Below, piece by piece: positions 21,291-63,945 of a DNA stretch of 64,000 bases. The translations under genes were made by a program, and so were the position numbers. How positions within the stretch are numbered: position 1 is the first letter of the stretch; each line of letters begins with the position of its first letter. Origin of the DNA: an uncultured Thermotogae bacterium (GTDB taxonomy: Bacteria; Bipolaricaulota; Bipolaricaulia; UBA7950; UBA9294); NCBI GenBank assembly GCA_964523545.1, contig CAZFZM010000005.1, positions 31,805-95,804 on the forward strand. The letters run 5' to 3'. The notes under the pieces were generated by a model. It made no database searches. It was given only the letters and a program-made list of their open reading frames with translations, and had not been told where the DNA came from.

Positions 21291-21294
21291 CACG

Positions 21295-22916: not shown

Positions 22917-22934
22917 GGCACAGGGAGCGATGCG

Positions 22935-24293
22935 ATGTCAGATCAGAATGCGGGGCCCACGGCGGAAGGGGCGCTTCGAGATCGATGGCGCGACGTGCTG
23001 AGCGCCATCGACGATCGGATCCTCCGCGCCTGTCTTCCCACGGACGTGGCGGCCGTCTCGCTCGATGAGGATCAGCTGTTCGTCTCCGTCGACAGCGAGT
23101 TCAAGAAGGAGTACTGCCTCCGGAAGCTGGAGAAGCTCCAGGAGGCAGTCACGAAGACGATCGGCCCGCACGAGGTCGTGATCGGCGAGCCTCCGCTCGT
23201 CGAGCAGGCACGAGAGCAGGAGCCTCAGCGCGGCGCCAACGCTCGGATCCTGGTCCTCGGCGTCGGCGACGGCGGCGTGAACGCCGTCGTGCGGATGCGC
23301 GAGGAACGACTGCAAGGCGTCCGGTTGGTGGCGGTCGATACCGATCGGCAGGTGCTCGATGCGGCTTCGATCGGGGAGACGCTGCAGCTGGGCATGGACA
23401 TCACGAGCGGCCGAGGGACCGGCGGGGATCTGGACAAGGGGCGCCACGCGGCGAGCGAGTCGCGATGGGAGATCGCGAACCTCGTCCGCGACATGGACCT
23501 CGTGTTCATCACGGCCGGGCTCGGCGGCGGCACTGGGAGCGGTGCCGCACCGGTCATCGCCGAGATTGCGAAGGAGGCCGACGCCCTGACGGTCGGCGTC
23601 GTGACGCGGCCGTTCTCGTTCGAGGGAACCGTTCGCATGAGCCACGCCGAGGCCGGCTTGGCGGAGCTACGTCGGGCGGCCGACGTGTTGATCGTCATCT
23701 CGAACGATCGGCTCCTGGAGACGAACGCGCGCGGCCTGCCGATGACGAAGGCGTTCGAGCTGGCCGACGAGATCCTCCACGAAGGGGTGCGCGGGATCTC
23801 CGATCTGATCACGATCCGCGGCTTGATCAATCTCGATTTTGCCGACATCCGAAGCGTCCTGTCCGGAGCCGGCGACGCGATGATGGGGATGGGACAGGCG
23901 ACCGGTGCTCAGCGGGCGGTCAACGCGGCGAAGTTCGCCAGCAGCAACCCTCTCCTCGAAGGGGATTCGATCCGGGGAGCCCGCAAGATGATCATGAACG
24001 TGACGGGCGGCGCGGACTTGACGCTCGGGGAGGTCACCGCGGCGGCCGACCACATCCGAAAAGCGGCGGCGACGGAGTGCGATCTGGTCTTCGGTGCCGT
24101 CGTCCAACCGGACTTCGGGGGCGGGATTCAGATCACGGTGATCGCGGCCGACTTCCAGGAAGCCGACATGATCGGTCGGGAGCTGCGACGGCCGCTACTG
24201 CGTGAGAGGATCACGGTGGACAAGAATCTCGATGTCCCCACGTTCCTTCGGAGGGAGCGCGTGACGGAACAGGACGAGGCGGAGAAGACGTAG
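22935..24293 (+). CDS. ftsZ: cell division GTPase FtsZ with a ~100-aa N-terminal extension
   Basis: ATG at 22935 lies 7 nt after AGGGAG. The core starts about nt 23241 (ARILVLGVGDGGVNAV). Tubulin signature GLGGGTGSGAAP and C-terminal peptide DVPTFLRRE are present. Confidence 0.9.
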   Translation: MSDQNAGPTAEGALRDRWRDVLSAIDDRILRACLPTDVAAVSLDEDQLFVSVDSEFKKEYCLRKLEKLQEAVTKTIGPHEVVIGEPPLVEQAREQEPQRGANARILVLGVGDGGVNAVVRMREERLQGVRLVAVDTDRQVLDAASIGETLQLGMDITSGRGTGGDLDKGRHAASESRWEIANLVRDMDLVFITAGLGGGTGSGAAPVIAEIAKEADALTVGVVTRPFSFEGTVRMSHAEAGLAELRRAADVLIVISNDRLLETNARGLPMTKAFELADEILHEGVRGISDLITIRGLINLDFADIRSVLSGAGDAMMGMGQATGAQRAVNAAKFASSNPLLEGDSIRGARKMIMNVTGGADLTLGEVTAAADHIRKAAATECDLVFGAVVQPDFGGGIQITVIAADFQEADMIGRELRRPLLRERITVDKNLDVPTFLRRERVTEQDEAEKT

Positions 24294-41172: not shown

Positions 41173-41256
41173 CGCGGCCGAGGGTTCTCGATGCGCGGTG
41201 TACGTGCTATTCTGTGGGCCGCGAACGATGAAGACGAAAACGAGATCAAGGAGGCG

Positions 41257-42216
41257 ATGATGGGCAGGAAGGTCGCACTCACGACGGCGGCCGCGTTGGC
41301 CGTTGTGCTGTCGGTCGTCCTGATGGGGGGGGAGGTCGGAAAGGGACGGTTCTTCGAGCTGGGGAACCACGAGCCGATCTACATCTACGGCAACGACGGG
41401 TTCACGGTCGAGAACGGGGTCGTCTCGGGATGCGGGACCGTCGCGGCCCCCTACGTCATCGAAGGCTGGCAGATCGACGCGCCCAATGCGGACTACGGGA
41501 TCTACGTCGACCACACGACCGCCCACTTCGTCGTGCGGGACTGCACCGTCGAACGGGCGCGCCTCGCCGGCGTCTACTTCAACACCGTACGGAACGGACG
41601 GATCGAACGGTCGAAGATCGGACTGTCGGACACCGCCGTCTATCTGCTGAACTCAGCGGGGAACTCGTTCCGGCGGAACGTCGTCGCCGACAGCCTCTAC
41701 GGGATCGTGATGGGGGCCCGGTCGAAGGACAACGTCGTCGCGGGAAACGCCTTCCTCGGCAACGGGATGAACGGCTACGACCCGTACAACGACAACCTCT
41801 GGTCGGAGGACTGCCGGGGGAACTACTGGAGCGACTACACCGGGTCCGACCACGACGGGGACGGGATCGGTGACGTCCCGTACTACCGCGTCTACGACCC
41901 GAGACCGCTGATGACTCCGCCGGTCGACGAATGCGACGAGCCGGAGGCCGTCGTGGAAACCCCGATGGAAGAGCCTCCGGCGGTAGCGGGACCGGAGCCG
42001 ACAGAGCCCGAGCAACCGGCGACGGTGGAAGAAGTCGTGTCGGAGGCCGAATCGCCGGCGGAAGAAGAAGCGGCGGTGACGGAGCCGGTGGAGCCCGAGG
42101 AGACCTCGGCGATCGAGACGGACGCGTCGACCGAGCCCGTCCAGACCGGGTCGACGACCGTCGTGGAACCGGAGGCGGACGAGACCGCTCCGACGGACGA
42201 AGGCGCTGAGTTCTAA
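41257..42216 (+). CDS. membrane-anchored NosD-like right-handed beta-helix protein with acidic Pro/Glu/Thr-rich tail
   Basis: ATG 41257 or 41260 follows AAGGAGG. N-terminal TM. IYIYGNDGFT..NG..GCGT...PYVIEGW.I and GNYWSDYTGSDHDGDGIGDVPY match the NosD/periplasmic copper-binding beta-helix pattern. The last ~100 aa are low-complexity and acidic. Confidence 0.8.
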   Translation: MMGRKVALTTAAALAVVLSVVLMGGEVGKGRFFELGNHEPIYIYGNDGFTVENGVVSGCGTVAAPYVIEGWQIDAPNADYGIYVDHTTAHFVVRDCTVERARLAGVYFNTVRNGRIERSKIGLSDTAVYLLNSAGNSFRRNVVADSLYGIVMGARSKDNVVAGNAFLGNGMNGYDPYNDNLWSEDCRGNYWSDYTGSDHDGDGIGDVPYYRVYDPRPLMTPPVDECDEPEAVVETPMEEPPAVAGPEPTEPEQPATVEEVVSEAESPAEEEAAVTEPVEPEETSAIETDASTEPVQTGSTTVVEPEADETAPTDEGAEF

Positions 42217-44792: not shown

Positions 44793-45905
44793 GTGGCCAA
44801 ACCAGCCCGGGGTACGCCGAGGGGGCGAGTCGGGAGGAGTTCCCTGCTTGTTGTCGGCCTCCTTGTCGTAGCTGGTTGCTACTTCGTTAACTCCGAACCC
44901 CGTGCCAGCTTCGGCTACTCGCCCAACTCCTGCTACTGCGGCGCGCCGGTGCTGTTCGATGCGTCAAGTTCGTACTCAGGCAGCGACACGATTTCGTCCT
45001 ACGCGTGGCGATTCGGCGACGGCTCAACGGGGAGAGGGCGTACTGTGGAGCACGTTTTCTCCTCGCCGGGGCGGTACTCCGTTGAATTGACGGTCGTTAC
45101 CGAAAAAGGAGAACAGGCTTTCGCATCGAAGCAGGTCACGATCCTACACGGTCTCGTCGTGCCTTCCGCGTATCCGACGATCCAGGAGGCAATCGATGCG
45201 GCAAGAGACGGCGAGACGGTCGTGGTGATGCCGGGAACGTATAGGGAGAACATCAGGATTCGCGAGAAACGGATCACGGTGCAAAGCAGCGATCCTGACA
45301 GCTCGGTCGTCGTGAGGTCAACGGTCATCCAGGGTGTAGAGGAAGGAAGACCGACAATCCGGATCGGGAGCGGCTCGGAAGCGACACTGGCGGGGTTCAC
45401 TCTCTTGGCCGGCCCCCTGGAGGGCTACGAGGGAGCCAAATGCGGCGCGTGTTTCGGGATCGTCTACATCCGCGAAGCGTCACCGACGGTCCGGAAGAAC
45501 CGGATCGTGAACTCGCCCGATACAGGGATCGCCATCTATGAGTCCGGCGCGAAGATCGAGGAGAACATCATCTCGAACAATAGCGCCGACTTACCCGGTG
45601 GTGCGATCGTCGTCGACAGCTATCGGGTTGCGCCGAGGATCACCAGGAATACGTTCGAAGGGAACAGCGCGACCTCGGGAGGTGCCATCTTCATCACCTC
45701 GACGGCCGTGTTGGACGCAACCCCGGCATGCGCGGCGATGACCATCGTGACCGGCAATACGTTCCGAGACAACACGGCAACGCAGTTTGGAGGCGGAGCG
45801 ATCTTCGTGGAATACGTTGGGAACTTGAGACTCGATTCACCGGACAGCAACACCTATGTTGGCAACGAACCGGATGACGTGTTCTATGTCGTGTCGCCGA
45901 GTTGA
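44793..45905 (+). CDS. lipoprotein with PKD domain and right-handed beta-helix (pectate-lyase/NosD-like) repeats
   Basis: GTG start follows GAGGAGGA. Lipobox LLVVAGC. PKD unit (FDASSSYSGSDTISSYAWRFGDGS...H.F..PG.Y.V.L.V). Then YPTIQEAIDAA..G..V.V.PG.Y.E and repeated N.I.-type beta-helix turns. Confidence 0.75.
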   Translation: MAKPARGTPRGRVGRSSLLVVGLLVVAGCYFVNSEPRASFGYSPNSCYCGAPVLFDASSSYSGSDTISSYAWRFGDGSTGRGRTVEHVFSSPGRYSVELTVVTEKGEQAFASKQVTILHGLVVPSAYPTIQEAIDAARDGETVVVMPGTYRENIRIREKRITVQSSDPDSSVVVRSTVIQGVEEGRPTIRIGSGSEATLAGFTLLAGPLEGYEGAKCGACFGIVYIREASPTVRKNRIVNSPDTGIAIYESGAKIEENIISNNSADLPGGAIVVDSYRVAPRITRNTFEGNSATSGGAIFITSTAVLDATPACAAMTIVTGNTFRDNTATQFGGGAIFVEYVGNLRLDSPDSNTYVGNEPDDVFYVVSPS

Positions 45906-46320
45906 AATCACGAGAGTCTGCTGTGAGCTGGCGGAGTGGAGATCTCTGGCGTTGATCCTGCCTCCGAACTCGCGGAATTCAACAAGTAAGGTTAGCTGGC
46001 TCACCGCAGCGAGCAGGTTGTCTCTCATACGAGGCAATTATCGGGGGTGTGCTCAGTTGTGATCGGCAGTGCATTCTGTTGGGAACGGAGGACGACGGAT
46101 CCATGGGGTGGGTGCTGAGAATACCAGGCAGGTATTGAATTGCTGGAATGTATCTGTACAGCTGAAGGTGCTGGTAACAGCGGCGAGGTGATCCTACCCG
46201 CTCAGCCTCTTAGACTTAGCAACTCAGGTGGTACAGCTTTTCAACCGCGCCCCAAACTTGCAATTATGAGGTAAGTATTCCAACGCCAATGATTCCAGTA
46301 ATAACTGAGGAGGCGTGCTT

Positions 46321-49300
46321 GTGAAAACGCTCGAAGGAAGCAGGACGGATATATCGGGAACCCTGCGCGCTCTGCTACTGGGATTCGTTCTGGTCGTGTT
46401 ATTCCTCGCGCTGGGCCTCAAGACCATTGGAGCAGAGTCCACAAGCGTCGCGCTCTTCCGCGCACCCGCACCGAAGGAACTTGCTCAAGGCAAGCTGTCC
46501 GCTGTTCGGTCTGGACCTGAGGTTGTGCGCACGGCATTCGTGCTTGTCAACTTCCCTCTACTGGGAGACGAGACGGGGCCGGGACCCTCGAAACGCCTGA
46601 GCCTCGATCTCTTCCCAGAAGTGATTGTCGAAGTGGAGTACCGTAGAACTGAAACGTCGATACTCGGGTTCGCATGGGTTGGCGAAACGACAAGTGAGGT
46701 GGGCGGCTTTGCTGTGTTTTCTGTCGTAGAGAACGTGCTCGCAGGAGGAGTTCTCCTGCCCAGAGCTTTCTACTCTGTTGAGCATGTAAGCGGGGCGCTC
46801 TACGCGATTCACGAAATCGATCGCAGTTCCCTGCCGCCGGAAGGAGACCCACTAGACCGGCCTGACAAGGCTGGTGCCGAAGTAAGTCGCGGATCAGGAA
46901 ACGATGATGGCTCATTGATCGATGTGATGGTTGCATACACGACAGATGCGCGAATTGGGGCAGGAGGCACTGCGGACATCCTCGCGGAGATTAACGCGGC
47001 CGTTACCTGGACAAACCAGTGCTATGAGAACAGCGACGTCGCGCAGCGGCTGCGGATGGTTCATTCGGAGGAGGTAGCATACACCGAGTCAGCTGGTGAC
47101 CTGAGTCAGGAGCTCAACGACCTAGTAGGTACGTCTGACGGTCAAATGGACAACCTACACGACCTGAGGGATGCACATGCAGCCGATGTGGTTGTGCTGA
47201 TCACGGAAACAGGAACGAACTGCGGACTTGCAGATGCTGTGATGGCGGAAGCAAGCAGCGCGTTCTGTGTCGTGAAGAGGAGCTGCGCTTCCGACAATCT
47301 GACATTCCCGCATGAGTTAGGGCACCTCATGGGTGCTCGGCATGACTGGTACGTTGACAACGCGACGAGTCCTTACTCCTATGCACACGGGTACGTGGAT
47401 CCTGGACGGTCCTGGCGGACGGTCATGGCCTACTATCATGAGTGCACGGACTGCGCCGGAAGCTTCTGTAGTCGGGAACCCTACTTCTCCAATCCTGACA
47501 TAGAGTACCTCGGCGATCCAACCGGTGTAGCAGCCGGAACGGATGTCTCATGCGCCACCGGGGATTGCAGTAACCCGAGCTGTGACGCAGATGTGGCGCG
47601 AACGTTCGACGAGACCGCGCAAACCGTTGCAAACTTCCGAGACTCCCCCGAGGGCGTTGATGCTGCCCTTGTCATCGACCGCTCTGGTAGCATGAACACC
47701 GCAGAGAAGCTGCCGAAGGCAAAGGAGGGAGCGAAGTACTTCGTCGATTCTGCGCGCTTGGGGGACCAGATCGCGGTCTCAAGTTTCGCCGGCAGCGGAA
47801 CGCTGGTGAACGCGCTGACGGAGATCACCAACGCAGATCCTGCCGGTCCGATCAAGACGGGCATCAAAGCGAACATCGATGCGATGACTGCTAGTGGTAG
47901 CACGAACTTCGGCGCCGGCTTGCAGATTGCGTATGACGAGTTGGATAGTTCGGCGACACTGCAGCCGAAGTTCGCGGTCCTGATGAGCGACGGCCACCAC
48001 AACACGGGCACCTATGCAACGCAGGTGCAAGCGTTTGACGACGCGGGTTGGTCGATTCACACGATCGCCTTCGGCAGTGATGCAGACGACACCACTCTCA
48101 GGCAGATCGCCGATGACACCGGCGGCCTCTTCTACAAGGCCGAGACCACAAACCTCACCATGATCTACGATCTCATCCGGGCCCAGATGACCAGTCAGGC
48201 GGTCCTGGCGGCACTGCAATGGCTTCTCCAACTGGGGCAGACGATTACACACTACCTCCCGCCACTCAGTCCATGGAGTACGGTGATCAACTTCCTGCTC
48301 TCATGGGCCGGAAGCGATGTCGACCTGATCCTAATCCGGCCGGACGGCACGGAGGTCACGCCGGCCGACGCCGCCCTCGATCCGGACATCACGTACTATA
48401 AGGCAGCAACGTACGCATTCTACACGGTCAACAACCCGGAGCCGGGGAGCTGGGGCGTGCGGATCTCGGGAACGGATCTCCCGGATCCCGAGATCGTCAC
48501 GCTCAGCGTCACGGCAGCAAGTCCGGTTGTGGCGGGGTTCTACGGGTTCCAGGCCGCCTATGCTCCCGGCGACGTCATTCCGATTGCGGTTCAGCTCCGC
48601 GAGCAAGACGCCTCGCCCATTCTAGGAGCAAACGTCCAGGTCGATGTCAAGGCTCCGAACGGGACGGTCCAGACCCTCGTGCTGTTGGACGATGGGGCTC
48701 ACGACGACCTGTTGGCCAACGATGGTATCTACGGCGGTGAGTACACGAGCACGCTGACAGAGGGGTTCTACGGACTCGACGTCTCCGCTACGGGCAACTA
48801 CTCGGGCGGGCCCTTCTCCATCCAGATTGTCGGACGCGTCCTGGTTGGCGAACCGCCGTCTGCTGAGGGCTTCTTCGACTTCGAGTACGCCAATCAAGCT
48901 TCCATGGACGGTGCCGGGTGGACTCGCAGCGGACTGTGGCACTTGGCCGATGAGGCAACGTGCGCGTCGCTATCGCCCGTCCCTGTGCCGTTCCCGTCGT
49001 CGACGCACGCCGCGCACTTCGGCGATCTGGCCACCGGAGCGTATGAGTCCGATGGTTCCATGGCGCCGAGGACGGCGGTTCTGGAGAGACGAGCCCAGCA
49101 GCCAGAGGCAAGTCCGCTGGCGCAGGAGGCGAGAAGCTTCGGAGAGCTGATCAGCCCGGAGATCCAGCTTACGTTGCAGGATCAAATCGACCTGCGATTC
49201 CAGCACTTCCGTTCGGTGGAGTATTACGCCGACGGCCCGTACGACAAGACCTACGTCCAAGCGCAATTCGACGGGGGCGCGTGGCAGACGGTCTGGGGCC

Positions 49301-50583
49301 TCGATTCGCGGACGCCTTCGCAGGGGGCGTGGGTTGGTGTCGGGCCGATCCCGATTCCTGTGCCAGCAGGGGCGACTGTGATGCAGCTCAAGTTCGTCTT
49401 CGACTCCGTGGACAACTACGGGAATGACGGTCTGGGGTGGCTGATCGACGATGTCTCCGTTTCGGCACCAGGACCCGTAGCACTCACGATCTCCACGCAG
49501 TACCTCCCGACTGGGAAGGTCGGGCTGGCCTACAGCGCGTCGCTATCGGCCTCCGGTGGAACCCCTCCGTACGCGTGGACTTCCACGGGCCTGCCTGAGG
49601 GATTTGCGCTCGATCCTGCGAGCGGCACGATTTCCGGCGACCCGACGACCGCCGGGACCTACGACGTCACTGTGACCGTCACGGACGCGGTCGCCGCGAC
49701 GGCCTCGCGTCAGTATCAGCTGCAGATCAACCCTGCGGAACCGCCGCCTGTCGGTATCCTCTTCGAGGAGGACTTCGCCGACACCGGTGGCTGGACGATG
49801 AGCGGGCTGTGGCACACGACCGCAGCCTTGGGATGTGCCGATCTCACCGGGTACGGGACGTCGGCCTACTACGGCATCGGTGATGCCTGCGACTACGACA
49901 CCGGGGCTCGGACAACCGGTGTGCTCACTTCTCCGGTGATCGACGTCACGGGCGCTGTGGCGGTTCGGGTTCGATTCGATCACCTGCGCGAGGTCGAACC
50001 GTTCGGAGACGGCGCATACGACCTGACGCTCGTCGAAGCCAAGCGCGGCAATGGGTCTTGGGAGGTGATATGGGCCAGGGACTCCACGTCGCCGTCAACG
50101 GCCGCGTGGGAGCAAGCGACCACGAGCTCCTTCGCGACGGACGGAGCCGATAGCCTTCAGATTCGATTCGTCTTCGACACGGTGGATCAGTGGGCGAACG
50201 ACTTCCTCGGCTGGCTCGTGGACAATGTCTTCGTGGACTCGATGCCATCCGGGACTCCACTATCGCTGATGTCGGTTCTAGAGGCTGTCCCGAGAGGCAC
50301 GGGTGGGCGGGTGGAGATCTTCAACGCGCCGAACCCTGTTCGCGAAGACGGGACGGAGTTCGTGGTGCGCGGTGTCGACGCGACTGTGCTGCAAGTTGAG
50401 GTCTATGACCTTTCCGGTACGCTCGTTTGGGAAGGACAGACCGCGGGCAACGAGCTTCCTTGGGACGGCGTAGGGACCAACGGGGAAAGACTCGCTAATG
50501 GGGTCTACCTGTACAAGGTTTCCGTCCAGATGGGGGACGCGTGGCTGGTCTCCGAGATCCGGAAGCTGGTCATCTTGCGGTAA
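46321..50583 (+). CDS. giant secreted multidomain protein: metzincin protease - vWA - beta-sandwich - 2x MAM/LamG-like - Ig-like - T9SS/FlgD-Ig-like CTD
   Basis: GTG 46321 lies 8 nt after GAGGAGG (the track start 46315 is only 2 nt after it). Signal anchor. HELGHLMGARH at 47311..47343. DRSGS MIDAS motif at 47677..47691. See findings for the remaining modules. Confidence 0.85.
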   Translation: MKTLEGSRTDISGTLRALLLGFVLVVLFLALGLKTIGAESTSVALFRAPAPKELAQGKLSAVRSGPEVVRTAFVLVNFPLLGDETGPGPSKRLSLDLFPEVIVEVEYRRTETSILGFAWVGETTSEVGGFAVFSVVENVLAGGVLLPRAFYSVEHVSGALYAIHEIDRSSLPPEGDPLDRPDKAGAEVSRGSGNDDGSLIDVMVAYTTDARIGAGGTADILAEINAAVTWTNQCYENSDVAQRLRMVHSEEVAYTESAGDLSQELNDLVGTSDGQMDNLHDLRDAHAADVVVLITETGTNCGLADAVMAEASSAFCVVKRSCASDNLTFPHELGHLMGARHDWYVDNATSPYSYAHGYVDPGRSWRTVMAYYHECTDCAGSFCSREPYFSNPDIEYLGDPTGVAAGTDVSCATGDCSNPSCDADVARTFDETAQTVANFRDSPEGVDAALVIDRSGSMNTAEKLPKAKEGAKYFVDSARLGDQIAVSSFAGSGTLVNALTEITNADPAGPIKTGIKANIDAMTASGSTNFGAGLQIAYDELDSSATLQPKFAVLMSDGHHNTGTYATQVQAFDDAGWSIHTIAFGSDADDTTLRQIADDTGGLFYKAETTNLTMIYDLIRAQMTSQAVLAALQWLLQLGQTITHYLPPLSPWSTVINFLLSWAGSDVDLILIRPDGTEVTPADAALDPDITYYKAATYAFYTVNNPEPGSWGVRISGTDLPDPEIVTLSVTAASPVVAGFYGFQAAYAPGDVIPIAVQLREQDASPILGANVQVDVKAPNGTVQTLVLLDDGAHDDLLANDGIYGGEYTSTLTEGFYGLDVSATGNYSGGPFSIQIVGRVLVGEPPSAEGFFDFEYANQASMDGAGWTRSGLWHLADEATCASLSPVPVPFPSSTHAAHFGDLATGAYESDGSMAPRTAVLERRAQQPEASPLAQEARSFGELISPEIQLTLQDQIDLRFQHFRSVEYYADGPYDKTYVQAQFDGGAWQTVWGLDSRTPSQGAWVGVGPIPIPVPAGATVMQLKFVFDSVDNYGNDGLGWLIDDVSVSAPGPVALTISTQYLPTGKVGLAYSASLSASGGTPPYAWTSTGLPEGFALDPASGTISGDPTTAGTYDVTVTVTDAVAATASRQYQLQINPAEPPPVGILFEEDFADTGGWTMSGLWHTTAALGCADLTGYGTSAYYGIGDACDYDTGARTTGVLTSPVIDVTGAVAVRVRFDHLREVEPFGDGAYDLTLVEAKRGNGSWEVIWARDSTSPSTAAWEQATTSSFATDGADSLQIRFVFDTVDQWANDFLGWLVDNVFVDSMPSGTPLSLMSVLEAVPRGTGGRVEIFNAPNPVREDGTEFVVRGVDATVLQVEVYDLSGTLVWEGQTAGNELPWDGVGTNGERLANGVYLYKVSVQMGDAWLVSEIRKLVILR

Positions 50584-50765
50584 CCTGGTCCGTCCCTCCT
50601 TCCGTAGGATGATCGCCCGGTCGATGTCGCCTGGACGGACAGCCGTCATGGGGAAGGTCGACAAACTCCTTTGCGTTTCGTGACTTCAGTCGGTGCCTGT
50701 GAGCGTTGCGTCCGTATGCTCAGTGCGGGACTGATTCCAGCTTGCGCATAAAGAAGGAGGTCCTC

Positions 50766-53714
50766 GTGAGAAGCCTTGTCTTGTGCCTGGCATTGGGGTG
50801 CCTTTCGCTTTCAGTATTCGCTGCTCCGACGTTTACCGATCAGAGCGTGGAGGCAGGGCATCTCAACCCCGGGGACACGGAGATAGCCGTTCAGACGGTC
50901 CGAGTGACGGGTGACTCTACCCACGCTACGGACTTCAATGCGATCCAGATCCGCAATGGCGGGACCGCTACGTATCAGCAGATCACTCGAATCGAAGTCC
51001 GAGACGGCGGGACCACAATCGCTGCAATGGACACACCGATCGGTCTGACCTCGCAGAGTGGAGTGACGATCGCGACGACCCATTCGCTGCCGGCGGGAGA
51101 TACCGAGGATCTCCGGATACTGGTGTGGGTAGGGGATACGAGTGCGGTTCAGGGCGGCGAGACGCTGCAGTTCGAGGTTAGGTTCCACTACTACCTGAAT
51201 GGTACGGCGGGAACGAGCCGATGGATTGCGGATGGCCAGGATGAAGACATAACGCATACCGGCTTCGAAAACATCAACGACTCCTCACCGGCCGCGAACA
51301 ACTACAACCCCGGTGACGAAGGGACAGTCCAGCGAGTGAGCTTCAGGGACGAGGACGCGAACACGTCGGACCAGACCGTGACGACCGTGCTGATTCAGAA
51401 CACGGGAACGGCCACCGCCGACGACTTGGAGAGTCTGACAGTTGCTATCACGCATGGCGGAGGCACGTGGCAAGAGACGAAAACGACCGGGCTGGCCGCC
51501 TGGAAGAACGGAGGCATCGTCTTCGATCCTCCCGACATTCTCATCGGTGATGAGGACCAGCTCACCGTGGAGGTCGATGTCGAAATCGCTGCTCCTACTC
51601 CTACCGTTCCGACTGACAACCACACGATACGCACGAGGACAACGCTGAACGTAACCGAGAATGCGCAGGCTTTCAGTCAAGAGGTCGTCGCCTCGACGAC
51701 ACAACGGATACGAAAGGCAGGGCTTGAGGAGGTCGAGGACGACAGCACGATCCCTCCTTCTGGTGTGCTCAATCCGAATGAAACGCTGACTCAGAAGATC
51801 ATCGTCCGCGATCGGGACATCAACGCAGAGCGGGTCAACGTTACGCGCCTCTGGGTGCGTAACCTCGGAACTGCGGCCGAGACCGAAATCGAGAGGATCA
51901 TCGTGCGAAGCGGCGGCGCGCCGCTCGGTACGTTCACCGGAGCTCAGATCGCTCCATTCCTGACGGGGGTGTGGCTGGATATCACGGACGTGCTCGTCGC
52001 CAATGAGGGAGACCGCACGTTCTTCATCGAGTACGAGATTGCCTCCAGCCAGACTCTTCAGCCGCAGGTGAAGCTGGAGTGCAACGAGGACGGAAACGTC
52101 TATACCACCCTTCCGGTTGACTATCCCGCTCCGGTCACATTGTACGGAGCAGGACTGGAGATCCTCGAAAACGAGAACCTGACGACAGAGACGGTCTATT
52201 CATTCCAGAGGTTCTGTGCTCAGAAAATCCGCATGGAGGACCTCGACGAGAACACCAACTCGGTCACGGTGAACCCTGTGGTGTGCAAGAACCAAGGGAC
52301 TGCCGCCGACAGCGAGATTGCCAGGATCGAAGTGCGGAACGCGGACGGGGCTCTGCTGGGAGAGACAACTGAGATCGGAGGGTTCAACGCAGGTGGCGTG
52401 ACGATTCCGACATTGAGCAACAACGCCGTCTCCGATGACTCGGAGGGGTACCTCTGGATCTGGGTTACTCTGGCGGGGACAGAAGACACAGTCGCGGGCC
52501 ATACGGTCGAACTGCAGACGACGGTTTTCCACACCGAGGGAGGAACCTCCTACAACCGAGCGGTCCAAGGAAATCCATGGACGATCGCTCTTAACAATCG
52601 TCCGGTGCCGGACTTCACCTTCGAGGAGGCGGCCGCTCCGGCGTCGGTCCGGCCGATGGCCGACTTCACCTACGAGGACACGATCCAGTTCAACGGGACG
52701 GCGACCGACCCGGACGGCGACGACATCGTCGAGTGGCACTGGGACTTCGGAGATGGGAACACCTCGGACGAGCAGAACCCGACGCACCAATATCCGAACG
52801 GAGGGACGTTCGACGTGACCCTGACGGTGACCGACGAGCACGGCGTGACCGGTTCGGTGACGAAGACGATCGAGGTCGAGGGGCCGCCGAACGAGGAGCC
52901 GACGATCGACGAGCTGACGGCCGATCCGGAGAACCCGGCGGTCGATCAGGACGTCGAGTTCGCCGTGACGGTGACGGATCCCGATCAGCCCGCCGGAACG
53001 GCGTTCGGCTACGAATGGGACTTCGGCGACGAGGCGACGAGCACCGTCGCGAATCCGACGCACAGCTACGACGAGGAAGGGACCTACACGGTGACGGTGA
53101 CCGTCACGGACGCGCAGGGGGCGACGGACACGGCGACGATCGACGTCACCGTCGGGAACGACCCGCCGACGTTGACCGGAGTCACCGCGAATCCGGCGAC
53201 CGCAGGCACCGGGGACGAGGTCGCCTTCACCGCCACCGGCTACGACGATCCGGACGACGACGCGGTCGGCCACTACGAGTGGGACTTCGACGACGGGACG
53301 ACGACGGAGACCGACGGAGCGACGGCCAACCACATCTTCGCGACGCCCGGCACGTACACCGTCTCGGTGGTCGCAGTGGACGAGCGTGGCACCGAGAGCG
53401 CGGCGGTGACCGTGCAGGTGACCGTGACCGGCCCGGCGCGGACGATCCTGTTCGCCTTCCCGAACCCGGCGGAGACCAACGCGACGTTCAACTACTTCCT
53501 GCCCGACGGGGCGACCGATCCGGTCCTTCGGATCTACGGCCTGCTCGGCGAGTTGGTCTTCGAGCAGGAGCTTCAGGAGGACGGAACGCCCTTCGTGTGG
53601 GATCTCCGCACGGCCGGGGGGGACAGGTTGCCGAACGGCCTCTACTTCTGCGTCGTCACGGTGACGGGAGCGAACCGGTCGGCGGTCTTCCGCCTGCTGA
53701 TCGACCGCCAATAG
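50766..53714 (+). CDS. secreted protein: four uncharacterised ~140-aa tandem modules, three PKD domains, T9SS/FlgD-Ig-like CTD
   Basis: GTG 50766 lies 5 nt after GGAGG. Signal peptide LVLCLALGCLSLSVFAAP. The modules share ..V.V.D.D.N...V..I.V.N.GTA....I..I.VR.G. PKD cores WDFGDG, WDFGDE and WDFDDG are present. Confidence 0.85.
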   Translation: MRSLVLCLALGCLSLSVFAAPTFTDQSVEAGHLNPGDTEIAVQTVRVTGDSTHATDFNAIQIRNGGTATYQQITRIEVRDGGTTIAAMDTPIGLTSQSGVTIATTHSLPAGDTEDLRILVWVGDTSAVQGGETLQFEVRFHYYLNGTAGTSRWIADGQDEDITHTGFENINDSSPAANNYNPGDEGTVQRVSFRDEDANTSDQTVTTVLIQNTGTATADDLESLTVAITHGGGTWQETKTTGLAAWKNGGIVFDPPDILIGDEDQLTVEVDVEIAAPTPTVPTDNHTIRTRTTLNVTENAQAFSQEVVASTTQRIRKAGLEEVEDDSTIPPSGVLNPNETLTQKIIVRDRDINAERVNVTRLWVRNLGTAAETEIERIIVRSGGAPLGTFTGAQIAPFLTGVWLDITDVLVANEGDRTFFIEYEIASSQTLQPQVKLECNEDGNVYTTLPVDYPAPVTLYGAGLEILENENLTTETVYSFQRFCAQKIRMEDLDENTNSVTVNPVVCKNQGTAADSEIARIEVRNADGALLGETTEIGGFNAGGVTIPTLSNNAVSDDSEGYLWIWVTLAGTEDTVAGHTVELQTTVFHTEGGTSYNRAVQGNPWTIALNNRPVPDFTFEEAAAPASVRPMADFTYEDTIQFNGTATDPDGDDIVEWHWDFGDGNTSDEQNPTHQYPNGGTFDVTLTVTDEHGVTGSVTKTIEVEGPPNEEPTIDELTADPENPAVDQDVEFAVTVTDPDQPAGTAFGYEWDFGDEATSTVANPTHSYDEEGTYTVTVTVTDAQGATDTATIDVTVGNDPPTLTGVTANPATAGTGDEVAFTATGYDDPDDDAVGHYEWDFDDGTTTETDGATANHIFATPGTYTVSVVAVDERGTESAAVTVQVTVTGPARTILFAFPNPAETNATFNYFLPDGATDPVLRIYGLLGELVFEQELQEDGTPFVWDLRTAGGDRLPNGLYFCVVTVTGANRSAVFRLLIDRQ
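50859..52595 (+). repeat. four tandem coding repeats of an unrecognised ~140-150-aa module
   Basis: Approximate units, in track-ORF numbering: aa 52-190, 199-340, 353-485 and 495-630. Aligned by eye on NPGD/NPNE ... N.GTA ... I.RIEVR anchors. Confidence 0.65.
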
Positions 53715-53726
53715 GAGGGAACGACT

Positions 53727-54680
53727 GTGAAACGGACCAAGATCGTTGTGATGGTGGCCCTCCTCAGCGTGGGGCTGGGCCTTGCGGGGGGCGCGCAGCA
53801 GGCGCAGACCGTCTTTGAGATCGAACCGGGCGTCGGCATGCTTGGAGCGGCCGCCGCGGGGCTCTCCATCGTCAGCGGAGCGGAGACGCTCTACTACAAT
53901 CCGGCGAGCCTCTCCGAGCTTTCGGGGATCAGCTTCAGCTCGTTCTACGCCTCGTACTTGGGACAGGCGAGCTACTCGGCGTTGGCCCTGACGTTTCGCA
54001 ACTGGGGCGTGGCGGCGCTGTTGCTGGGGTCGACGGGGATTCAGGGGTACGACGACGACGGGAATCCGACGGACACCCTCGCGTACCGAAACACGGGCTT
54101 CCTGTTCGGAGTCGGACTCGATCCGAGCGATCTCCCGTTCCTGCCGAGCTTCGCGATCGATATGTCGCTCGGCGCGCGGATCAAGATCCTGAGAGTGCGG
54201 TTGGGGGAAGCGACGGGGAGCGGCTTCTCCTTCGACCTCGGCTTTCGCACGGCCTTCCCCGACATGCATTTCGGCGGTTTCGGCGTTTCGGATGTCGCGT
54301 TGGGGGTCACGGCCGTCAACCTGTTCGGCGGGGTCGCCTACGACACGGCCGACGACAGCTTCCTGATGGACATTCAGATCGGCGTGTCGGCGTTGTTTGC
54401 TGAGATGGTCCGCGCGGCGTTCGACGTGCACCTCTCCGGGGCGGTCCATTTCGGCGTGATCTACGAGCCGATGCCGACCTTCGCATTGCGCTTCGGAGTG
54501 ATCTCCCGGGACGGTGTGTCGGTGACCGCCGGCCTCGGCATCAACGTGGAAGGATTCCTGCTCGACTACGCGTACGTCACGCACACGCTCGGCGGGACGC
54601 ACCGCGTCTCGCTCACGCTCGACTTCTCGAGCCTCGACGTCAGTGCGCTGAGTCGCTCGTTGAGGCGTCTCCTTCCGTGA
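53727..54680 (+). CDS. PorV/PorQ-like outer-membrane beta-barrel protein
   Basis: 317 aa with signal peptide. GVGMLGAAAAGLSIVSGAETLYYNPASLSEL resembles the PorV/PorQ N-terminal signature (GMGGA...A.yyNPAgL). Strand-like segments alternate throughout. Starts 13 nt after the preceding CTD-bearing gene. Confidence 0.6.
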   Translation: MKRTKIVVMVALLSVGLGLAGGAQQAQTVFEIEPGVGMLGAAAAGLSIVSGAETLYYNPASLSELSGISFSSFYASYLGQASYSALALTFRNWGVAALLLGSTGIQGYDDDGNPTDTLAYRNTGFLFGVGLDPSDLPFLPSFAIDMSLGARIKILRVRLGEATGSGFSFDLGFRTAFPDMHFGGFGVSDVALGVTAVNLFGGVAYDTADDSFLMDIQIGVSALFAEMVRAAFDVHLSGAVHFGVIYEPMPTFALRFGVISRDGVSVTAGLGINVEGFLLDYAYVTHTLGGTHRVSLTLDFSSLDVSALSRSLRRLLP

Positions 54681-57055: not shown

Positions 57056-57274
57056 TTCCCCCTCAGGGTATTCGATTCGACCGCGTCACAACGTCGTAAG
57101 GGTTTGCAGATCGGGGGACGTCGGACACGTTTCGGCTGGACGGTGTCGCGGGGCGTCGCTTCACCGGAATGCCACACGGTGTTCATCCTCGCCTCAAGGA
57201 GGATCGGTAGACTGAACGGCAGAAGGGAACGGATTTCGTAGCGTTGGTCGGTGTGTCGGTGTGACGGGGGGCGG

Positions 57275-57280
57275 TATAAT
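57275..57280 (+). promoter_or_regulatory. perfect TATAAT box upstream of CDS 57342
   Basis: ggcggTATAATggcc. No convincing -35 at 16-18 nt. Confidence 0.3.
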
Positions 57281-57341
57281 GGCCGCAAGGGTGCGTTCGT
57301 CAGCACGTCGGGTGGTGCACCGTGCAAAGGAGACACTTCAC

Positions 57342-59264
57342 ATGAGACGGATAGGGATGGTCGCTTTGGTTCTGGCCACCGTGGCGGGCGTCGCGGTGGC
57401 GGGCTTCGGCGCGTCGAGGGGCCCGATCACGATCCTTGGAAACGGAGATTTCACGGAGGAGAACGGGGTTCTTTCGGGCAGCGGGACGGCCGCGGATCCG
57501 TACGTGATCGCGGGTTGGGAGATCGGCGTGCCGGAGGGTGCGTCCTACGGGGTGCTGATCGAGAACGTGACCGCGGCGTTCGTCCTCCGCGGATTGATCA
57601 TCAGCGGTGCGGGCGAACTCGACGGTGCGGCGATGCGCATCGCGTTCGCCGCAGGAGGCTTGATCGAGGGGTGCACGATCGGCAGCTCGGTGAACGGGAT
57701 CGAGATCGCTTCGTCGACCGACGTGACGCTTCGCAACAACGTCCTCTACGCGCGCGGCATCGGCCTGAGGGTCACCGGAGAATCGCCGGCGGAGTACCGG
57801 CACGCGATCGAGCCGTCGAATCAGCTGAACGACTTCCCGATTCACTACTACTACGGCCTCGACGGCGACCGGATCGAGGGGATCGAGACCCGGCACCTCA
57901 CGGTGGCGGCGAGCCGGAACGTGACCGTGATCGGCAATTCGGTCCTCGACGGCGACGGGATCCACCTGGCTTACGTCACCGATTCGACGGTGACCGCGAA
58001 CGTTGCCGGCCGCAACAACAACGTGTTGACGGAGCACGCGATCTACCTGTACGAGTCGGAGCGCGTCGCCGTGACGGCGAATCTGCTGAAGAACGCGCGC
58101 CGCGCCGGCGTCCAATTGACGCTGTCCACCGAGAACGAGATCCGAGGCAACTACTTCGGCGTAGACGACACCGGAGTCCGTCTGATCGGATCGAGCGGCA
58201 ACTTCATCACCGAGAACGAGCTGCTCGGTTGCTTCACCGCCGTCTGGCTCCTCGGAGGGTCCGACGACAACCGCATCGAGGGGAACATCGTCGTCGGAAA
58301 AGTGAGCGCCGACGGCGACCGAAGGCAGGGGATCGTCCTCGACTTGGCGTCCGGAAACCGGATCGAGCGGAACGCGCTCACCGAGTGCGAGATAGGGATC
58401 ACCCTCGAGGCGGTCGCGAGCCGCAACGAAATCATCGACAACACGATCGTCGCGGGCGGGTATGGGATCTTCGTCTCCGGCTCGTACAACGAGATCGGAG
58501 GGAACCTCGTGACGCAACAGGCGCGGGGGATTCTGTTCCCCGAGACGTACGGCCAGTCGATCACACGAGGAAACAGGTTCACTGCGAACGTCCTCGGAGA
58601 CAACCGGCATCACCTCTACACGAATCTCGACTGCGAGTCGAACGTGTTCACCGAAAACGTCTTCCTTGGTGACGCGCTCACCCTCGTCTCGGATCGCGGG
58701 ACCGGGAACCGTTGGGCGGACTCCGGGATCGGGAACTACTGGGGCAACGTGCACGTCGAAGACGCTGACGGCGACGGCCTCGGTGACGCCGCGATCACGA
58801 TCTATCCCGCGGGCGTCCAGGACGACGCGCCGCTGGCGTCGCTCGATCCGGCCGAGTTGAGGATCGGCGTCCTCGGGACGCTCCCGGCCGAGACGGTCCG
58901 TGTCGACCGAGGCGACGGAACGATCGTCGAGATCGACGCGCTGATCGCCGAATCGGGATCGCAGCGCTGGACCGGTTTCCGCGGCTTCCCCGCGGCGCTC
59001 CTCGACGGCTTCCCCGCGATTCTGTTCGTCTTCGAGACGGAGGCCGAGCTTCGGTTCACGATGGTGACCGTTCCGTTCGACCTCGACGTCGCGTTCTTCG
59101 ATGCCGCGGGAGGGATCGTCGGGACCACGACGATGACCGCGTTGTCAGAGGACCTGTACACGGCGACGGGGCCGTTCCAGTATGCGCTTGAGCTGCCGAG
59201 CGGCGTGCTGGAAGAGCTGTCGATCGGGGAGGACGCGACGCTGGTTCTCCCCGTCGAAGACTGA
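57342..59264 (+). CDS. NosD-like right-handed beta-helix protein fused to C-terminal DUF192
   Basis: ATG follows AAGGAG. N-terminal anchor. ITILGNGDFT..NG..GSGT..DPYVIAGWEI is paralogous to CDS 41257. Many N.I..N turns and GNYWGNVHVEDADGDGLGD. The last ~135 aa (..QRWTGFRGF...GFPAILFVFE....FTMVTVPFDLDVAFFDAAGGIV) fit DUF192/UPF0127. Confidence 0.8.
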   Translation: MRRIGMVALVLATVAGVAVAGFGASRGPITILGNGDFTEENGVLSGSGTAADPYVIAGWEIGVPEGASYGVLIENVTAAFVLRGLIISGAGELDGAAMRIAFAAGGLIEGCTIGSSVNGIEIASSTDVTLRNNVLYARGIGLRVTGESPAEYRHAIEPSNQLNDFPIHYYYGLDGDRIEGIETRHLTVAASRNVTVIGNSVLDGDGIHLAYVTDSTVTANVAGRNNNVLTEHAIYLYESERVAVTANLLKNARRAGVQLTLSTENEIRGNYFGVDDTGVRLIGSSGNFITENELLGCFTAVWLLGGSDDNRIEGNIVVGKVSADGDRRQGIVLDLASGNRIERNALTECEIGITLEAVASRNEIIDNTIVAGGYGIFVSGSYNEIGGNLVTQQARGILFPETYGQSITRGNRFTANVLGDNRHHLYTNLDCESNVFTENVFLGDALTLVSDRGTGNRWADSGIGNYWGNVHVEDADGDGLGDAAITIYPAGVQDDAPLASLDPAELRIGVLGTLPAETVRVDRGDGTIVEIDALIAESGSQRWTGFRGFPAALLDGFPAILFVFETEAELRFTMVTVPFDLDVAFFDAAGGIVGTTTMTALSEDLYTATGPFQYALELPSGVLEELSIGEDATLVLPVED

Positions 59265-61254: not shown

Positions 61255-62571
61255 TCACTTCCCGGCGACCTGGAGGGAGTCGACGAGGACGTACGGGGCC
61301 ATGCCGACCGAGCGAAGACCGGAGAAGGCGCGCCGCCGCTCCCGGCTGACGGCGCGAACCTTGCGAAGGTCCTCGTAGATGTTGCCGGAGATCATCGTCT
61401 TGTCGAGGCGGCCGATGACCTTGCCGCCGACGATGTGGTAGCCGACGGCCTGGACGGCGAACTGCCCCTGCGGGTAGTTCCCGGAATGGAAGCCCATCCC
61501 GTTGGTGATGAGGAGGCCCTCCTTCAATCCAGACAGGAGGTCACGCCAGCTTTCCTCGCCCGCCCCGATGACCGGATTTGCGAACCAGGGCGTGGGAGGC
61601 GTCTCGGACCCACCGCCGAACAGCGCCTCCTTGAAGCCGTGCCCGTTCGACGGCCGCTGAAGCGCCGCGCCGGACCTGAGGTCGACGATGTAGTCCTTCA
61701 GGACACCGTTCTCGACGATCGCTTGGGTGGCGCACGGGACGCCTTCGTCGTCGAACGGGCGCGCGCTCGGGTCGCCGTCGGCGAGCGGATCGTCGAGCAC
61801 GGTGAGCTTCTCGGAGAGGATCGGCTGTCCGACCTTGCCGACGAGCGGCGACGTCTTCTTCGAGACGAGGTCCCCGCTGACGCCCATCAGCAGCGGGAGA
61901 AGGAACAGGAACGCAGCTTCGGGAGCGAGGATTACCGGGAGGCGCCCGGTCGACGGGGTCGACGTGTCGTCGCCCCACCGGTACCACTCGACGAATTCGT
62001 CGACGAGGGCTTCGTCGACCTCGAACGGGGAGATCGACCGTTGCCCCTTGATGATCGCCGTCCCGACGCCTCGGAACGGTGCGCCGAATCCGATCGTGTA
62101 GTTCGTTGCTCGGAGTTCGTCGCCGGCGCCCTCCGTCGATTCGACGAGCAGGTGGGAAGTGTCCACCTGACCGCGGATGATCAGCGGGATGTCCGGGAGT
62201 TCCTTGTGGATCCGCTCCTTGACCGCTTCGCAGAGGTCGACCAGATCCTGGCTCGTCGCTCCGGCCGTCCGATCGTCGTAGGTACGGACGGAAGGGTAAT
62301 CGGCCGTCGGGGCAAACGAGAAGGTTGCCCCGTCGCCGTATCGGGCGGCGGCGCGCGCGTCGTCGAGGAGCGTTTCGGCTTCCGGGAAGACGCCGTACGT
62401 GCTTCCGAGCCGGCCGTCCTCGATCACCCGTAGGGCGACGGAGGAGAGGTCGTTCTCCTCGACCTGCTGGAGGCGGTAGTTCTGATAGAGGGCGCTGATC
62501 GTGTGTCGCCGTCTCCAGTAGAGCTCGGCCTGATCGACGGTCCCTTTCGCGGACTCAATCAGTGGATGCAT
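61255..62571 (-). CDS. TldE/PmbA family protein (pair 2, divergent)
   Basis: 438 aa. PmbA_TldD C-terminal pattern (FDDEGVP...NG.L...........G.....GN). Its start abuts the stop of the preceding tldD paralog. Confidence 0.8.
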   Translation of the reverse strand: MHPLIESAKGTVDQAELYWRRRHTISALYQNYRLQQVEENDLSSVALRVIEDGRLGSTYGVFPEAETLLDDARAAARYGDGATFSFAPTADYPSVRTYDDRTAGATSQDLVDLCEAVKERIHKELPDIPLIIRGQVDTSHLLVESTEGAGDELRATNYTIGFGAPFRGVGTAIIKGQRSISPFEVDEALVDEFVEWYRWGDDTSTPSTGRLPVILAPEAAFLFLLPLLMGVSGDLVSKKTSPLVGKVGQPILSEKLTVLDDPLADGDPSARPFDDEGVPCATQAIVENGVLKDYIVDLRSGAALQRPSNGHGFKEALFGGGSETPPTPWFANPVIGAGEESWRDLLSGLKEGLLITNGMGFHSGNYPQGQFAVQAVGYHIVGGKVIGRLDKTMISGNIYEDLRKVRAVSRERRRAFSGLRSVGMAPYVLVDSLQVAGK

Positions 62572-63945
62572 CTAGACACCTCCGATCGTCACGGCGTCGA
62601 TCTTGATGTGCGGAGCGCCGGTTCCTGACTTGCGGTTCGTCTGCATCGGGGATCCCTTTCCGCATCCGCCTCGCTCGCCGAAGGTCAGGTCGTCGCCGAC
62701 CATCGAGATCGCCTGCAGCGTGGAGAACAGCTCGCCGCTCATGTTGATGTCGCGAACCATCGGTCCGAGCTTGCCTTTCTCGATCCGAAAGCCCCATTGG
62801 GATCCGAACGTGAACTGATCGCCGGAGGTCTGTCCGCCCTTGGCGCCGACGAGGTAGTAGCCGTTGTCGATCGACGCGATCAGCTCGTCGAACGAGGACT
62901 CGCCCGGCTCGATGAAGATGTTCGACATCCGGACGAGCGGCGTGTACTGGACGTCGACCGCTCGCATGTTCCCGGAGAGGTCCTCGCCGAACTCCGCCGC
63001 GGTCTCGCGCGAGTGGAGACGGCCGGTGAGGACGCCCTCGGTGATCAGCCGCGTCTTGACGCCGCGAACCCCCTCGTCGTCGACGATGAAGTGGCCCGGT
63101 CGCCCCTCGAGGGTCGGATCGTCGCTGACCGAGAGGATCGGTCGTCCGAGCTTCGTCCCCATCTGCAGACGCGCCCGGAACGCCGGATTGTTCTGGAGAC
63201 CGTCCCCTTCCGAGAGGTGTCCGAACGCCTCGTGGATGAACACGCCGGCCTCGCTCGGATCCAGGATCACGGGGAAGACGCCGGCCTTCACCGGCTCGGC
63301 GTCGAGGAGCTCGCACGCCCTGGCGATCCGCGCCTTCAGCTCCTCCTCGCGGGCGAGAAGTCTTCCGTAGTCCTCGCAGCCGCCGAACGCGAAGCGAACC
63401 CGCTGAACGACGTCTCCCTTCTTGGCGACGATGAAGCCGACGATCCCGCAGTTGAGCAGCTCGTACTCGATCGCCGAGCCGTCGCTGTTGACGAAGACGC
63501 GCCGGGAGCCGAACTCGTCGTAGTACGTCTGTGTCGTGATGACGTTCGGCTCGCCGAGGATGATGCCGTTGTAGTGGGCCACGAGATCGAGCTTTTCTTT
63601 GAGGGAAATCCGCCGCGGATCCTGCGCCGGCGACAGAAGGAACGCGTCGGTGACGGTCGGGGCGTCGGCGACTCGGAGCTTCTTCTCTCGGAGCTTCCCC
63701 ACGAGCGACGCCGAGGTACAGGTCGACTCGGCGATCGGCCCGGCGCGCTCAGGGGCGGAGAAGGACGAGATCGCTTTCCCCCCGTCGGCGTAGGCGCGAA
63801 CGTGGCCGCCGGCCGATTCGGTCGATGCGACCTCGCTCAGCTTCTTCCCCTCGTAGAGGATCCGGACCTTCCGGTTCTCCTCGTACCGAATGTCCGCGTA
63901 ATCCACCGGGAGCTCCGCTGCCATCGCGGCCAGCTTCTCCTTCAT
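62572..63945 (-). CDS. TldD family metalloprotease (pair 2)
   Basis: 457 aa. HEAFGH (HExxxH), FIVDDEGV, GGCGKG. GAAGGAGG lies upstream. Confidence 0.85.
   Translation of the reverse strand: MKEKLAAMAAELPVDYADIRYEENRKVRILYEGKKLSEVASTESAGGHVRAYADGGKAISSFSAPERAGPIAESTCTSASLVGKLREKKLRVADAPTVTDAFLLSPAQDPRRISLKEKLDLVAHYNGIILGEPNVITTQTYYDEFGSRRVFVNSDGSAIEYELLNCGIVGFIVAKKGDVVQRVRFAFGGCEDYGRLLAREEELKARIARACELLDAEPVKAGVFPVILDPSEAGVFIHEAFGHLSEGDGLQNNPAFRARLQMGTKLGRPILSVSDDPTLEGRPGHFIVDDEGVRGVKTRLITEGVLTGRLHSRETAAEFGEDLSGNMRAVDVQYTPLVRMSNIFIEPGESSFDELIASIDNGYYLVGAKGGQTSGDQFTFGSQWGFRIEKGKLGPMVRDINMSGELFSTLQAISMVGDDLTFGERGGCGKGSPMQTNRKSGTGAPHIKIDAVTIGGV

Follow-up and report, generated by a model that had tools for sequence, protein, structure and literature searches.

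The stretch of DNA considered here (hereafter the window) comprises 64,000 nucleotides of contig CAZFZM010000005.1 (assembly GCA_964523545.1, positions 31,805 to 95,804 of the forward strand), from an uncultured bacterium deposited under Thermotogae and placed by GTDB in Bipolaricaulota (Bipolaricaulia; UBA7950; UBA9294). It holds genes for two large proteins, A and B, whose last ~90 residues resemble the C-terminal sorting domain (CTD) carried by type IX secretion system (T9SS) cargo, and directly after B a gene for a predicted outer-membrane barrel resembling PorV and PorQ of that system. The pair formed by B and the barrel recurs across the phylum and in paralogous copies, and it may be a cassette in which the barrel anchors the tail of its partner. 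The features on which this rests are the following.

50766..53714, plus strand: protein B, 982 residues, with a GTG start and an AAGGAGG ribosome-binding site
53457..53711, plus strand: sorting tail of B ("B-type" subtype), FPNPA.T.ATF.YFLP.GATDP.LRIY...NGLYFCVVT...FRLLIDRQ-COOH, found with TIGR04183
53715..53726, plus strand: spacer of 12 nt between the stop codon of B and the barrel GTG at 53727
53727..54680, plus strand: predicted outer-membrane barrel protein, 317 residues, from its AlphaFold2 (AF2) fold, Foldseek and a match to NF033709
46315..50583, plus strand: protein A, 1422 residues, with Pfam and NCBIfam domains and a sorting tail at the C-terminus
50329..50580, plus strand: sorting tail of A, residues 1339-1422 ("A-type" subtype), PNPV..D...ANGVYLYK...RKLVILR-COOH, found with TIGR04183

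Sorting tails and a PorV/PorQ-like barrel

The reading frame of B is open from 50706, and the GTG at 50766 is its likely start; the NCBI gene call also gives 982 residues. The protein consists of a signal peptide, four beta-sandwich domains of about 150 residues each, three PKD domains and the sorting tail. Its AF2 model (predicted local distance difference test, pLDDT, 86.7) is all-beta, with eight beta-sandwich domains in a string: the four N-terminal ones, the three PKD domains and a seven-strand C-terminal domain. A Foldseek search with the whole model returned only generic strings of immunoglobulin (Ig)-like domains (GhpA, alpha-2-macroglobulins, mastigoneme) and no functional lead. Full-length orthologs in relatives share 34-51% identity with B, and its N-terminal part was found in just 16 proteins, those with a name being from Bipolaricaulota/Acetothermia.

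An earlier sequence-only reading of the window held that the ends of A and B align with each other and that no other protein in the window carries such an end. Both statements hold: the two tails share 33% identity over 96 residues (pairwise E 4e-10), the peptides it quoted are present in the translations, and a hidden Markov model (HMM) built from four such tails finds A and B only, with no third copy, in a six-frame translation of the whole window. By inspection, A and B also begin with hydrophobic signal segments. The suggestion that the tails are T9SS-like was checked against profiles and is borne out by TIGR04183, the model of the T9SS type A sorting domain, which A and B match at 24.6 and 29.5 bits (cut-off 23), the A tail alone at 31 bits, and all 20 aligned tails from the window and related loci. 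Scores of both tails on FlgD_ig, CHU_C and Por_Secre_tail of Pfam stay below the gathering thresholds; PF18962 gives 14.3 for A against a threshold of 27 and is not listed for B. In the AF2 model of B the tail is a seven-strand beta-sandwich (residues 894-979, block pLDDT 67-89). Together these profile matches support assigning the two tails to the T9SS-like sorting domains of type A. Membership of the type B CTDs was considered and rejected, as TIGR04131 is matched by a single one of the 20 tails (E 0.0024) and CHU_C stays below threshold.

The 20 tails match most strongly at the C-terminal ends of two models, PorZ (18 of 20 tails, best E 9.4e-12) and PorU (19 of 20, best E 7.8e-10). Because other CTD-containing models match too, these hits are only suggestive with regard to mechanism. 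Beyond the tail, neither A nor B has homology to PorU or PorZ in Pfam or NCBIfam, the PorU matches covering the tail alone. Nearly all tails, counting those of the alignment and of the related loci L039 and L041, end in ..[KR]-x-[LV]-[IV]-x-R at the extreme C-terminus; the terminal Arg is invariant across the alignment of 20, and a few tails run one or two residues further, as in the ..RLLIDRQ end of B. A profile of the 20 tails searched against 5.8 billion proteins returned just 21 short fragments and was of no use for listing cargo.

The stop codon of B (TAG) overlaps the ribosome-binding site of the barrel gene (GGAGGG), which suggests translational coupling. The barrel protein consists of a signal peptide, a conserved N-terminal segment (YYNPA; ..ETLYYNPA..), a 14-strand barrel of the PorV/FadL type and a conserved 17-residue C-terminal helix. 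The sequence-only reading had proposed that the 317-residue gene starting 13 nt after B is PorV/PorQ-like and had expected a barrel of about 14 strands from structure prediction, and both proposals fit what was found. The AF2 model, made from an alignment of 38 homologs, has 14 long strands and short loops (pLDDT 80; predicted template modelling score, pTM, 0.75). Its top Foldseek matches in the PDB are the PorV chains 6h3i_F and 8gl6_F of two SprA translocon structures (E 7e-9 and 2e-8; template modelling score, TM, 0.63-0.66), followed by the PorV-like barrels 9n2d_B and 9hiv_F from Bacteroidota complexes of the beta-barrel assembly machinery (BAM; TM 0.42-0.44) and then by TodX and FadL (Foldseek TM 0.51-0.54).

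At the level of sequence, the NCBIfam PorV/PorQ family model NF033709 (PorV_fam) matches residues 28-300 over profile positions 5-326 with E 2e-14 and 53.9 bits, below its curated cut-off of 90; the PorQ and PorV2 models of NCBIfam match more weakly. The barrel has no match in Pfam and none to PorP/SprF in Pfam or NCBIfam, and a sequence-profile search of the PDB with the barrel family gave nothing, even at E 10. The FadL profile of Pfam (Toluene_X, PF03349) picked up 2 of 38 barrel-family members, with a best E of 0.19, and did not pick up the window protein. Homologs of about 317 residues number 221, and the family profile found 6291 relatives among 1.84 billion representative proteins; ten of the more distant ones, taken as a sample, score 75-165 bits on PorV_fam, five of them passing the cut-off, as does one Bipolaricaulota paralog (91.6 bits). 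Given the nearly full-length match to the PorV/PorQ profile, the PorV-like fold and the scoring relatives, the window barrel is best predicted to be a divergent PorV/PorQ-branch member of the FadL superfamily and not an ortholog of PorV or PorQ.

The last strand of the barrel ends in ..TLDF, like a typical beta-signal, and is followed by the conserved helix (SSLD..ALSRSLRR.LP; residues 301-317, window 54627-54677); paralogous barrels stop directly at F or W. The helix may be a periplasmic contact. Three distant relatives (P0222, P0244 and P0261; 621-695 residues) have the barrel fused to a TPR-rich C-terminal region of about 300 residues.

The B-barrel cassette and its paralogs

Among relatives with 58-75% barrel identity the gene order is serS, ABC transporter, NosD-like, smpB, NTPase, B, barrel, tgt, DUF4015 and NosD-like, with B orthologs of 1030-1054 residues. 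The inherited arrangement of B and barrel is kept down to about 50% barrel identity, and the barrel lies directly 3' of a tail-bearing reading frame in every one of the 28 loci that include upstream DNA (own HMMs on six-frame translations). Spacers across related cassettes are 12-15 nt or 4-nt overlaps, and the genes form one co-directional, probably translationally coupled unit. The sequence-only reading had described two cargo proteins and a shuttle as one such unit; the genes are indeed co-directional, but the conserved unit is B plus barrel only, and protein A sits in an insertion (described below).

Paralogous pairs provide independent support for a linkage between tail and barrel. In loci L017, L021, L023 and L027 a second tail gene directly precedes one for a divergent barrel of the PorV family (26-92 bits on PorV_fam). 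L039, an Acetothermia contig, and L041, a metagenome contig, have tandem cassettes of the form tail protein, barrel, tail protein, barrel, with gaps of 12-13 nt or overlaps of 4 nt, and the partners of these barrels carry cohesin and PKD domains. More generally, the N-terminal domains of the partner vary among divergent barrel lineages (PKD, cohesin, protease-associated). The subtype of the tail matches that of the barrel: a B-type tail goes with the 317-residue barrel, and an A-type tail (L017, L027) goes with the paralog. The two members also change together. Across 12 loci, identity to the window is 48-73% for the tail and 52-76% for the barrel, and just 24-43% for the N-terminal domains of B, so that tail and barrel diverge at similar rates and the N-terminus of B diverges faster.

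Two of these loci are islands of tail-bearing proteins (L039, positions 899-11134 of GCA_016179105.1, Ca. Acetothermia; L041, positions 2193-6457). The island in L039 has six such proteins, two of them each with a barrel directly after it. Cohesin and PKD domains occur on several island proteins, which hints at a cohesin-based envelope scaffold.

The named barrel homologs belong to Candidatus Bipolaricaulota (= Acetothermia, OP1). All 31 loci in the species-representative genome collection are from uncultured metagenome-assembled genomes; where a phylum label is given, it is either Bipolaricaulota/Acetothermia or, more loosely, "uncultured Thermotogae", "Thermotogota" or "Atribacteria". The looser labels are read as naming inconsistencies; one "Thermotogota"-labelled barrel homolog falls in the same 90% cluster as a protein named for Bipolaricaulota. 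The phylum is a sister of Thermotogota and has an OmpM-like Omp-alpha/Omp-beta tethering system (bioRxiv 10.1101/2021.05.31.446380). The Acetothermia genome Ran1, the first closed genome of the phylum, has no lipopolysaccharide (LPS) genes (PMC6092417), and the outer membrane of strain J31, the first cultured member, is toga-like and bears an S-layer (bioRxiv 10.1101/2025.11.21.689855); that B is this S-layer protein would be pure conjecture. In published surveys, T9SS occurred in Bacteroidetes only, and Thermotogae had none of the known diderm secretion systems (bioRxiv 10.1101/031039); a later review describes T9SS as specific to the Fibrobacteres-Chlorobi-Bacteroidetes (FCB) superphylum (PMC12398890). 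Our literature search found nothing tying T9SS or PorV to Bipolaricaulota, Acetothermia, Thermotogae or Thermotogota, and nothing on Por_Secre_tail in candidate phyla; the supplements of the Ran1 genome paper do not mention Por, FlgD, PKD, gliding or SprA.

Anchoring, known systems and rival explanations

The closest parallels come from the Bacteroidota T9SS. Two T9SS proteins, PorZ and PorU, retain the CTD and remain attached to PorQ and PorV, and porU and porV are adjacent genes, the CTD protein first and the barrel second. In the attachment complex PorZ is held by PorQ and PorU by PorV (PMC9143113). The window pair is like those of Porphyromonas gingivalis and Flavobacterium johnsoniae in combining a type A CTD protein with a 14-strand barrel, here a predicted one that is PorV/PorQ-like, and the order from B to barrel is the same as that from porU to porV. 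It differs in that the host lies outside the FCB group, with no Sov, PorK-N or LPS context known for it, and in that the barrel has 317 residues compared with 345-367 in solved PorV chains.

A second parallel lies in the type B CTD cargo of Bacteroidota, whose genes are linked to their own PorP/SprF barrel gene, with several pairs per genome (PMC12618676), and which is anchored through an intact CTD bound to that barrel (PMC9143113). As in SprB-SprF and PG1035-PorP, a cargo gene is linked here to its own barrel gene in several pairs; unlike in those, the tail is of type A and the barrel has the PorV/PorQ-FadL fold, and the Bacteroidota pairs need a T9SS translocon. In F. johnsoniae a single PorV recognises all type A CTDs (PMC12618676), its extracellular loops binding the CTD and SprA giving more than half of the buried CTD surface (PMC10994853). 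With so much of the surface coming from SprA, a stable complex lacking it would have to rely on another or a more extensive interface. The window barrel shares the 14 strands and the fold of PorV on the SprA translocon but is one of several dedicated barrels, in a host for which no SprA is known. The tail has a conserved basic residue close to its end ([KR] in ..[KR]-L-[LV]-I-x-R), possibly the counterpart of the conserved lysine in contact with PorV. Like FadL/TodX and Treponema UPF0164, the barrel belongs to one superfamily and has NPA in its N-terminal segment (NCBI names one relative "UPF0164 family protein [Ca. Acetothermia]"); unlike FadL/TodX, it has no significant match to the FadL profile, lower structural similarity to these channels and a steady linkage to CTD-bearing genes.

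Given one barrel per tail protein, the arrangement points to dedicated anchor pairs, and not to a general shuttle for a Sov translocon. The reading we favour, by a little over even odds in our judgement, is a two-gene outer-membrane anchoring cassette in which the tail of each partner is anchored by a barrel of its own. B and the barrel would both be exported by Sec, and the barrel would be inserted into a toga-like outer membrane without LPS genes. The tail of B, uncleaved, would dock non-covalently on its own barrel, independently of a Sov/SprA translocon, and would thereby hold a rod-like string of Ig-like domains on the sheath. Protein A would either use the barrel of B as well or depend on one encoded elsewhere.

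With tails above the cut-off of the type A CTD model and a PorV-like barrel, A and B could instead be ordinary cargo of a full T9SS encoded elsewhere (Sov/SprA, PorK-N, PorU and others), with the barrel as shuttle; we consider this unlikely. As the sequence-only reading had stated, no T9SS core gene (sov/sprA, porK/L/M/N, porU, porT, porW) was found among the window reading frames that were scanned, a few further ones being named by synteny with locus L002 only. A and B are the only reading frames above 1000 residues, and so no window gene has the size of Sov/SprA. The usual fate of type A cargo is covalent attachment to anionic LPS. That route would be ruled out if this genome, like Ran1 (PMC6092417), is without LPS genes. 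The absence of T9SS genes from 64 kb says little, since in Bacteroidota they usually lie dispersed over the genome (bioRxiv 10.1101/031039). The host, a sister lineage of Thermotogota, speaks against such cargo, given the surveys restricting T9SS to Bacteroidetes (bioRxiv 10.1101/031039) or the FCB superphylum (PMC12398890) and the literature search, which found no T9SS link to this phylum. A barrel without an equivalog-level PorV/PorQ match, and several paralogous barrels each beside its own tail protein, are likewise unlike the single general PorV of a T9SS.

The barrel might also be a channel of the FadL/TodX type that passes hydrophobic substrates (fatty acids or alkanes, for instance), B being a substrate-capturing surface protein or unrelated and the tail having no sorting or anchoring role towards the barrel. 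Its fold is of the FadL superfamily, TodX and FadL are among the top structural matches, and its N-terminal NPA segment resembles a FadL hatch. Hexadecane uptake through the toga is described for a cultured member of the phylum (bioRxiv 10.1101/2025.11.21.689855). This explanation nevertheless seems quite improbable, since Toluene_X reaches only 2 of 38 members at E 0.19 against E 2e-14 for PorV_fam, PorV is closer in structure (TM 0.63-0.66 versus 0.51-0.54), the linkage to a tail gene recurs in several divergent barrel lineages whose partners differ in their N-termini, and conservation of the tail parallels that of the barrel. A comparably low probability goes to a barrel that would be an export device as well as an anchor, moving its partner across the outer membrane alone or with BAM in the manner of a two-partner system, or to a partner that would be kept in an enlarged periplasm and tethered to the inner face of the barrel. 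FadL and PorV structures are 14-strand barrels plugged by their own N-terminal segment and too narrow for folded Ig-like domains, which argues against export through the barrel itself. In its favour, the next-best structural matches, 9n2d_B and 9hiv_F, accompany BAM, yet at a TM of only 0.42-0.44; the conserved C-terminal helix would face the periplasm if both barrel ends are periplasmic as usual; and the sister phylum Thermotogota is without all known diderm secretion systems (bioRxiv 10.1101/031039).

Several points weigh against the anchoring cassette. The 28 syntenic loci are orthologous and therefore count as one inherited arrangement, not as 28 independent events. Pairing is not strictly one-to-one, given that protein A and two tail proteins of locus L026 are without an adjacent barrel of their own, and a PorV-family relative in another genome (L037) is not beside a tail protein. 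The window barrel falls below the curated NF033709 cut-off (53.9 versus 90 bits) and has no equivalog match, with PorQ (NF033711) at 27.2 bits against a cut-off of 220 and PorV (NF033710) giving none. The binding of tail to barrel and the localisation of B are predictions, a folded protein of about 1000 residues would have to pass the outer membrane without a translocon, and T9SS core genes could lie elsewhere in the genome, beyond the window.

The families of the parts are known; the combination of this host phylum with a repeatedly duplicated cassette and no apparent T9SS context was not found described in the searchable literature. In NCBI the barrel is a "hypothetical protein" and B a "PKD domain-containing protein", an annotation that hides the link between tail and barrel. 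The sequence-only reading had suggested a divergent CTD-dependent display module and was largely right in kind: the idea fits a host outside the T9SS group and the module recurs across the phylum, although dedicated anchor pairs take the place of the shuttle it had named. Surveys have suggested that Thermotogae may have evolved different secretion systems (bioRxiv 10.1101/031039); the tail-plus-barrel cassette is a concrete candidate mechanism for placing large proteins on or in a toga-like sheath. If the anchoring cassette is real, CTD recognition by PorV/PorQ-type barrels would exist outside the FCB group as dedicated pairs, mirroring the logic of type B CTDs and PorP/SprF with a type A tail, and this would bear on the origin of T9SS. 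A wider proposal, which we hold only tentatively and with distinctly less than even confidence, is an autonomous surface display by CTD proteins and PorV/PorQ-like barrels without T9SS, native to a toga-type, LPS-free outer membrane; it would either be older and free-standing, the T9SS of Bacteroidota having recruited its shuttle and attachment arm from it, or have moved from one phylum to another.

The insertion carrying protein A and other genes of the window

Protein A lies in an insertion of about 6 kb (window 44793-50583) between the NTPase gene and B, whose first gene is the following.

44793..45905, plus strand: predicted lipoprotein, 370 residues, with an LVVAGC lipobox, a PKD domain and parallel beta-helix repeats (NCBIfam)

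The tail HMM finds no sorting tail on this lipoprotein. In syntenic relatives (L002 and L004) the lipoprotein gene and protein A are both missing between the NTPase gene and the B ortholog. The GC content of the insertion genes is 0.60-0.61 (0.60 for the lipoprotein gene) against 0.653 for the whole window, and at third codon positions (GC3) it is 0.65 in the N-terminal protease/VWA part of protein A against 0.87 in the barrel gene and about 0.85 in neighbouring genes. Being lower in GC and lacking in syntenic relatives, the two genes are a lineage-specific insertion. Its surroundings were examined for traces of a mobile element: there is no tRNA nearby, a repeat scan gave short imperfect matches only, none convincingly flanking, and the output of a promoter and terminator scan was at chance level.

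Protein A runs from a signal/anchor segment through a reprolysin-like M12B metalloprotease, a VWA domain and two copies of an uncharacterised domain flanking a He_PIG Ig domain to the tail. Its C-terminal 500 residues share 39-40% identity with tail proteins of L017 and L027 that are encoded upstream of PorV paralogs; relatives in other genomes are paired with their own paralogous barrel. Protein A is probably a later-added second tail-bearing protein and not part of the conserved unit. Between the A-like tail protein and the PorV-family paralog, L017 (5103-5771) and L027 (5016-5669) encode a protein of about 210-220 residues that has a signal peptide, ends like a beta-signal (..SIKLTW, ..SIELSW) and could be a small outer-membrane barrel and third cassette component; no counterpart is present beside protein A in the window.

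Elsewhere in the window, a PKD-rich protein of 829 residues without sorting tail (26086-28575, minus strand) weakly matches the model of myxosortase-dependent M36 peptidases in the C-terminal part of that model; it may likewise belong to the envelope and be sorted by some other signal. The FloA/NfeD and LCP genes that the sequence-only reading had listed as neighbours are present. An FtsZ reading frame of 466 residues (22893-24293, plus strand) has its tubulin domain from residue 118, with either a long N-terminal extension or a true start codon further downstream. The sole tRNA of the window, tRNA-Met(CAT), and a gene for a 173-residue RNase H/RVT_3-like protein that follows it 4 nt on lie at 21219-21816 (plus strand). 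NosD-like parallel beta-helix proteins flank the locus (41191-42216 and 57261-59264, both plus strand) and are both syntenic in relatives, one gene lying inside the ABC transporter operon and the orthologs of the other carrying DUF192. PmbA/TldD metallopeptidase genes form two separate tandem pairs (16023-18748 and 61255-63945, both minus strand).

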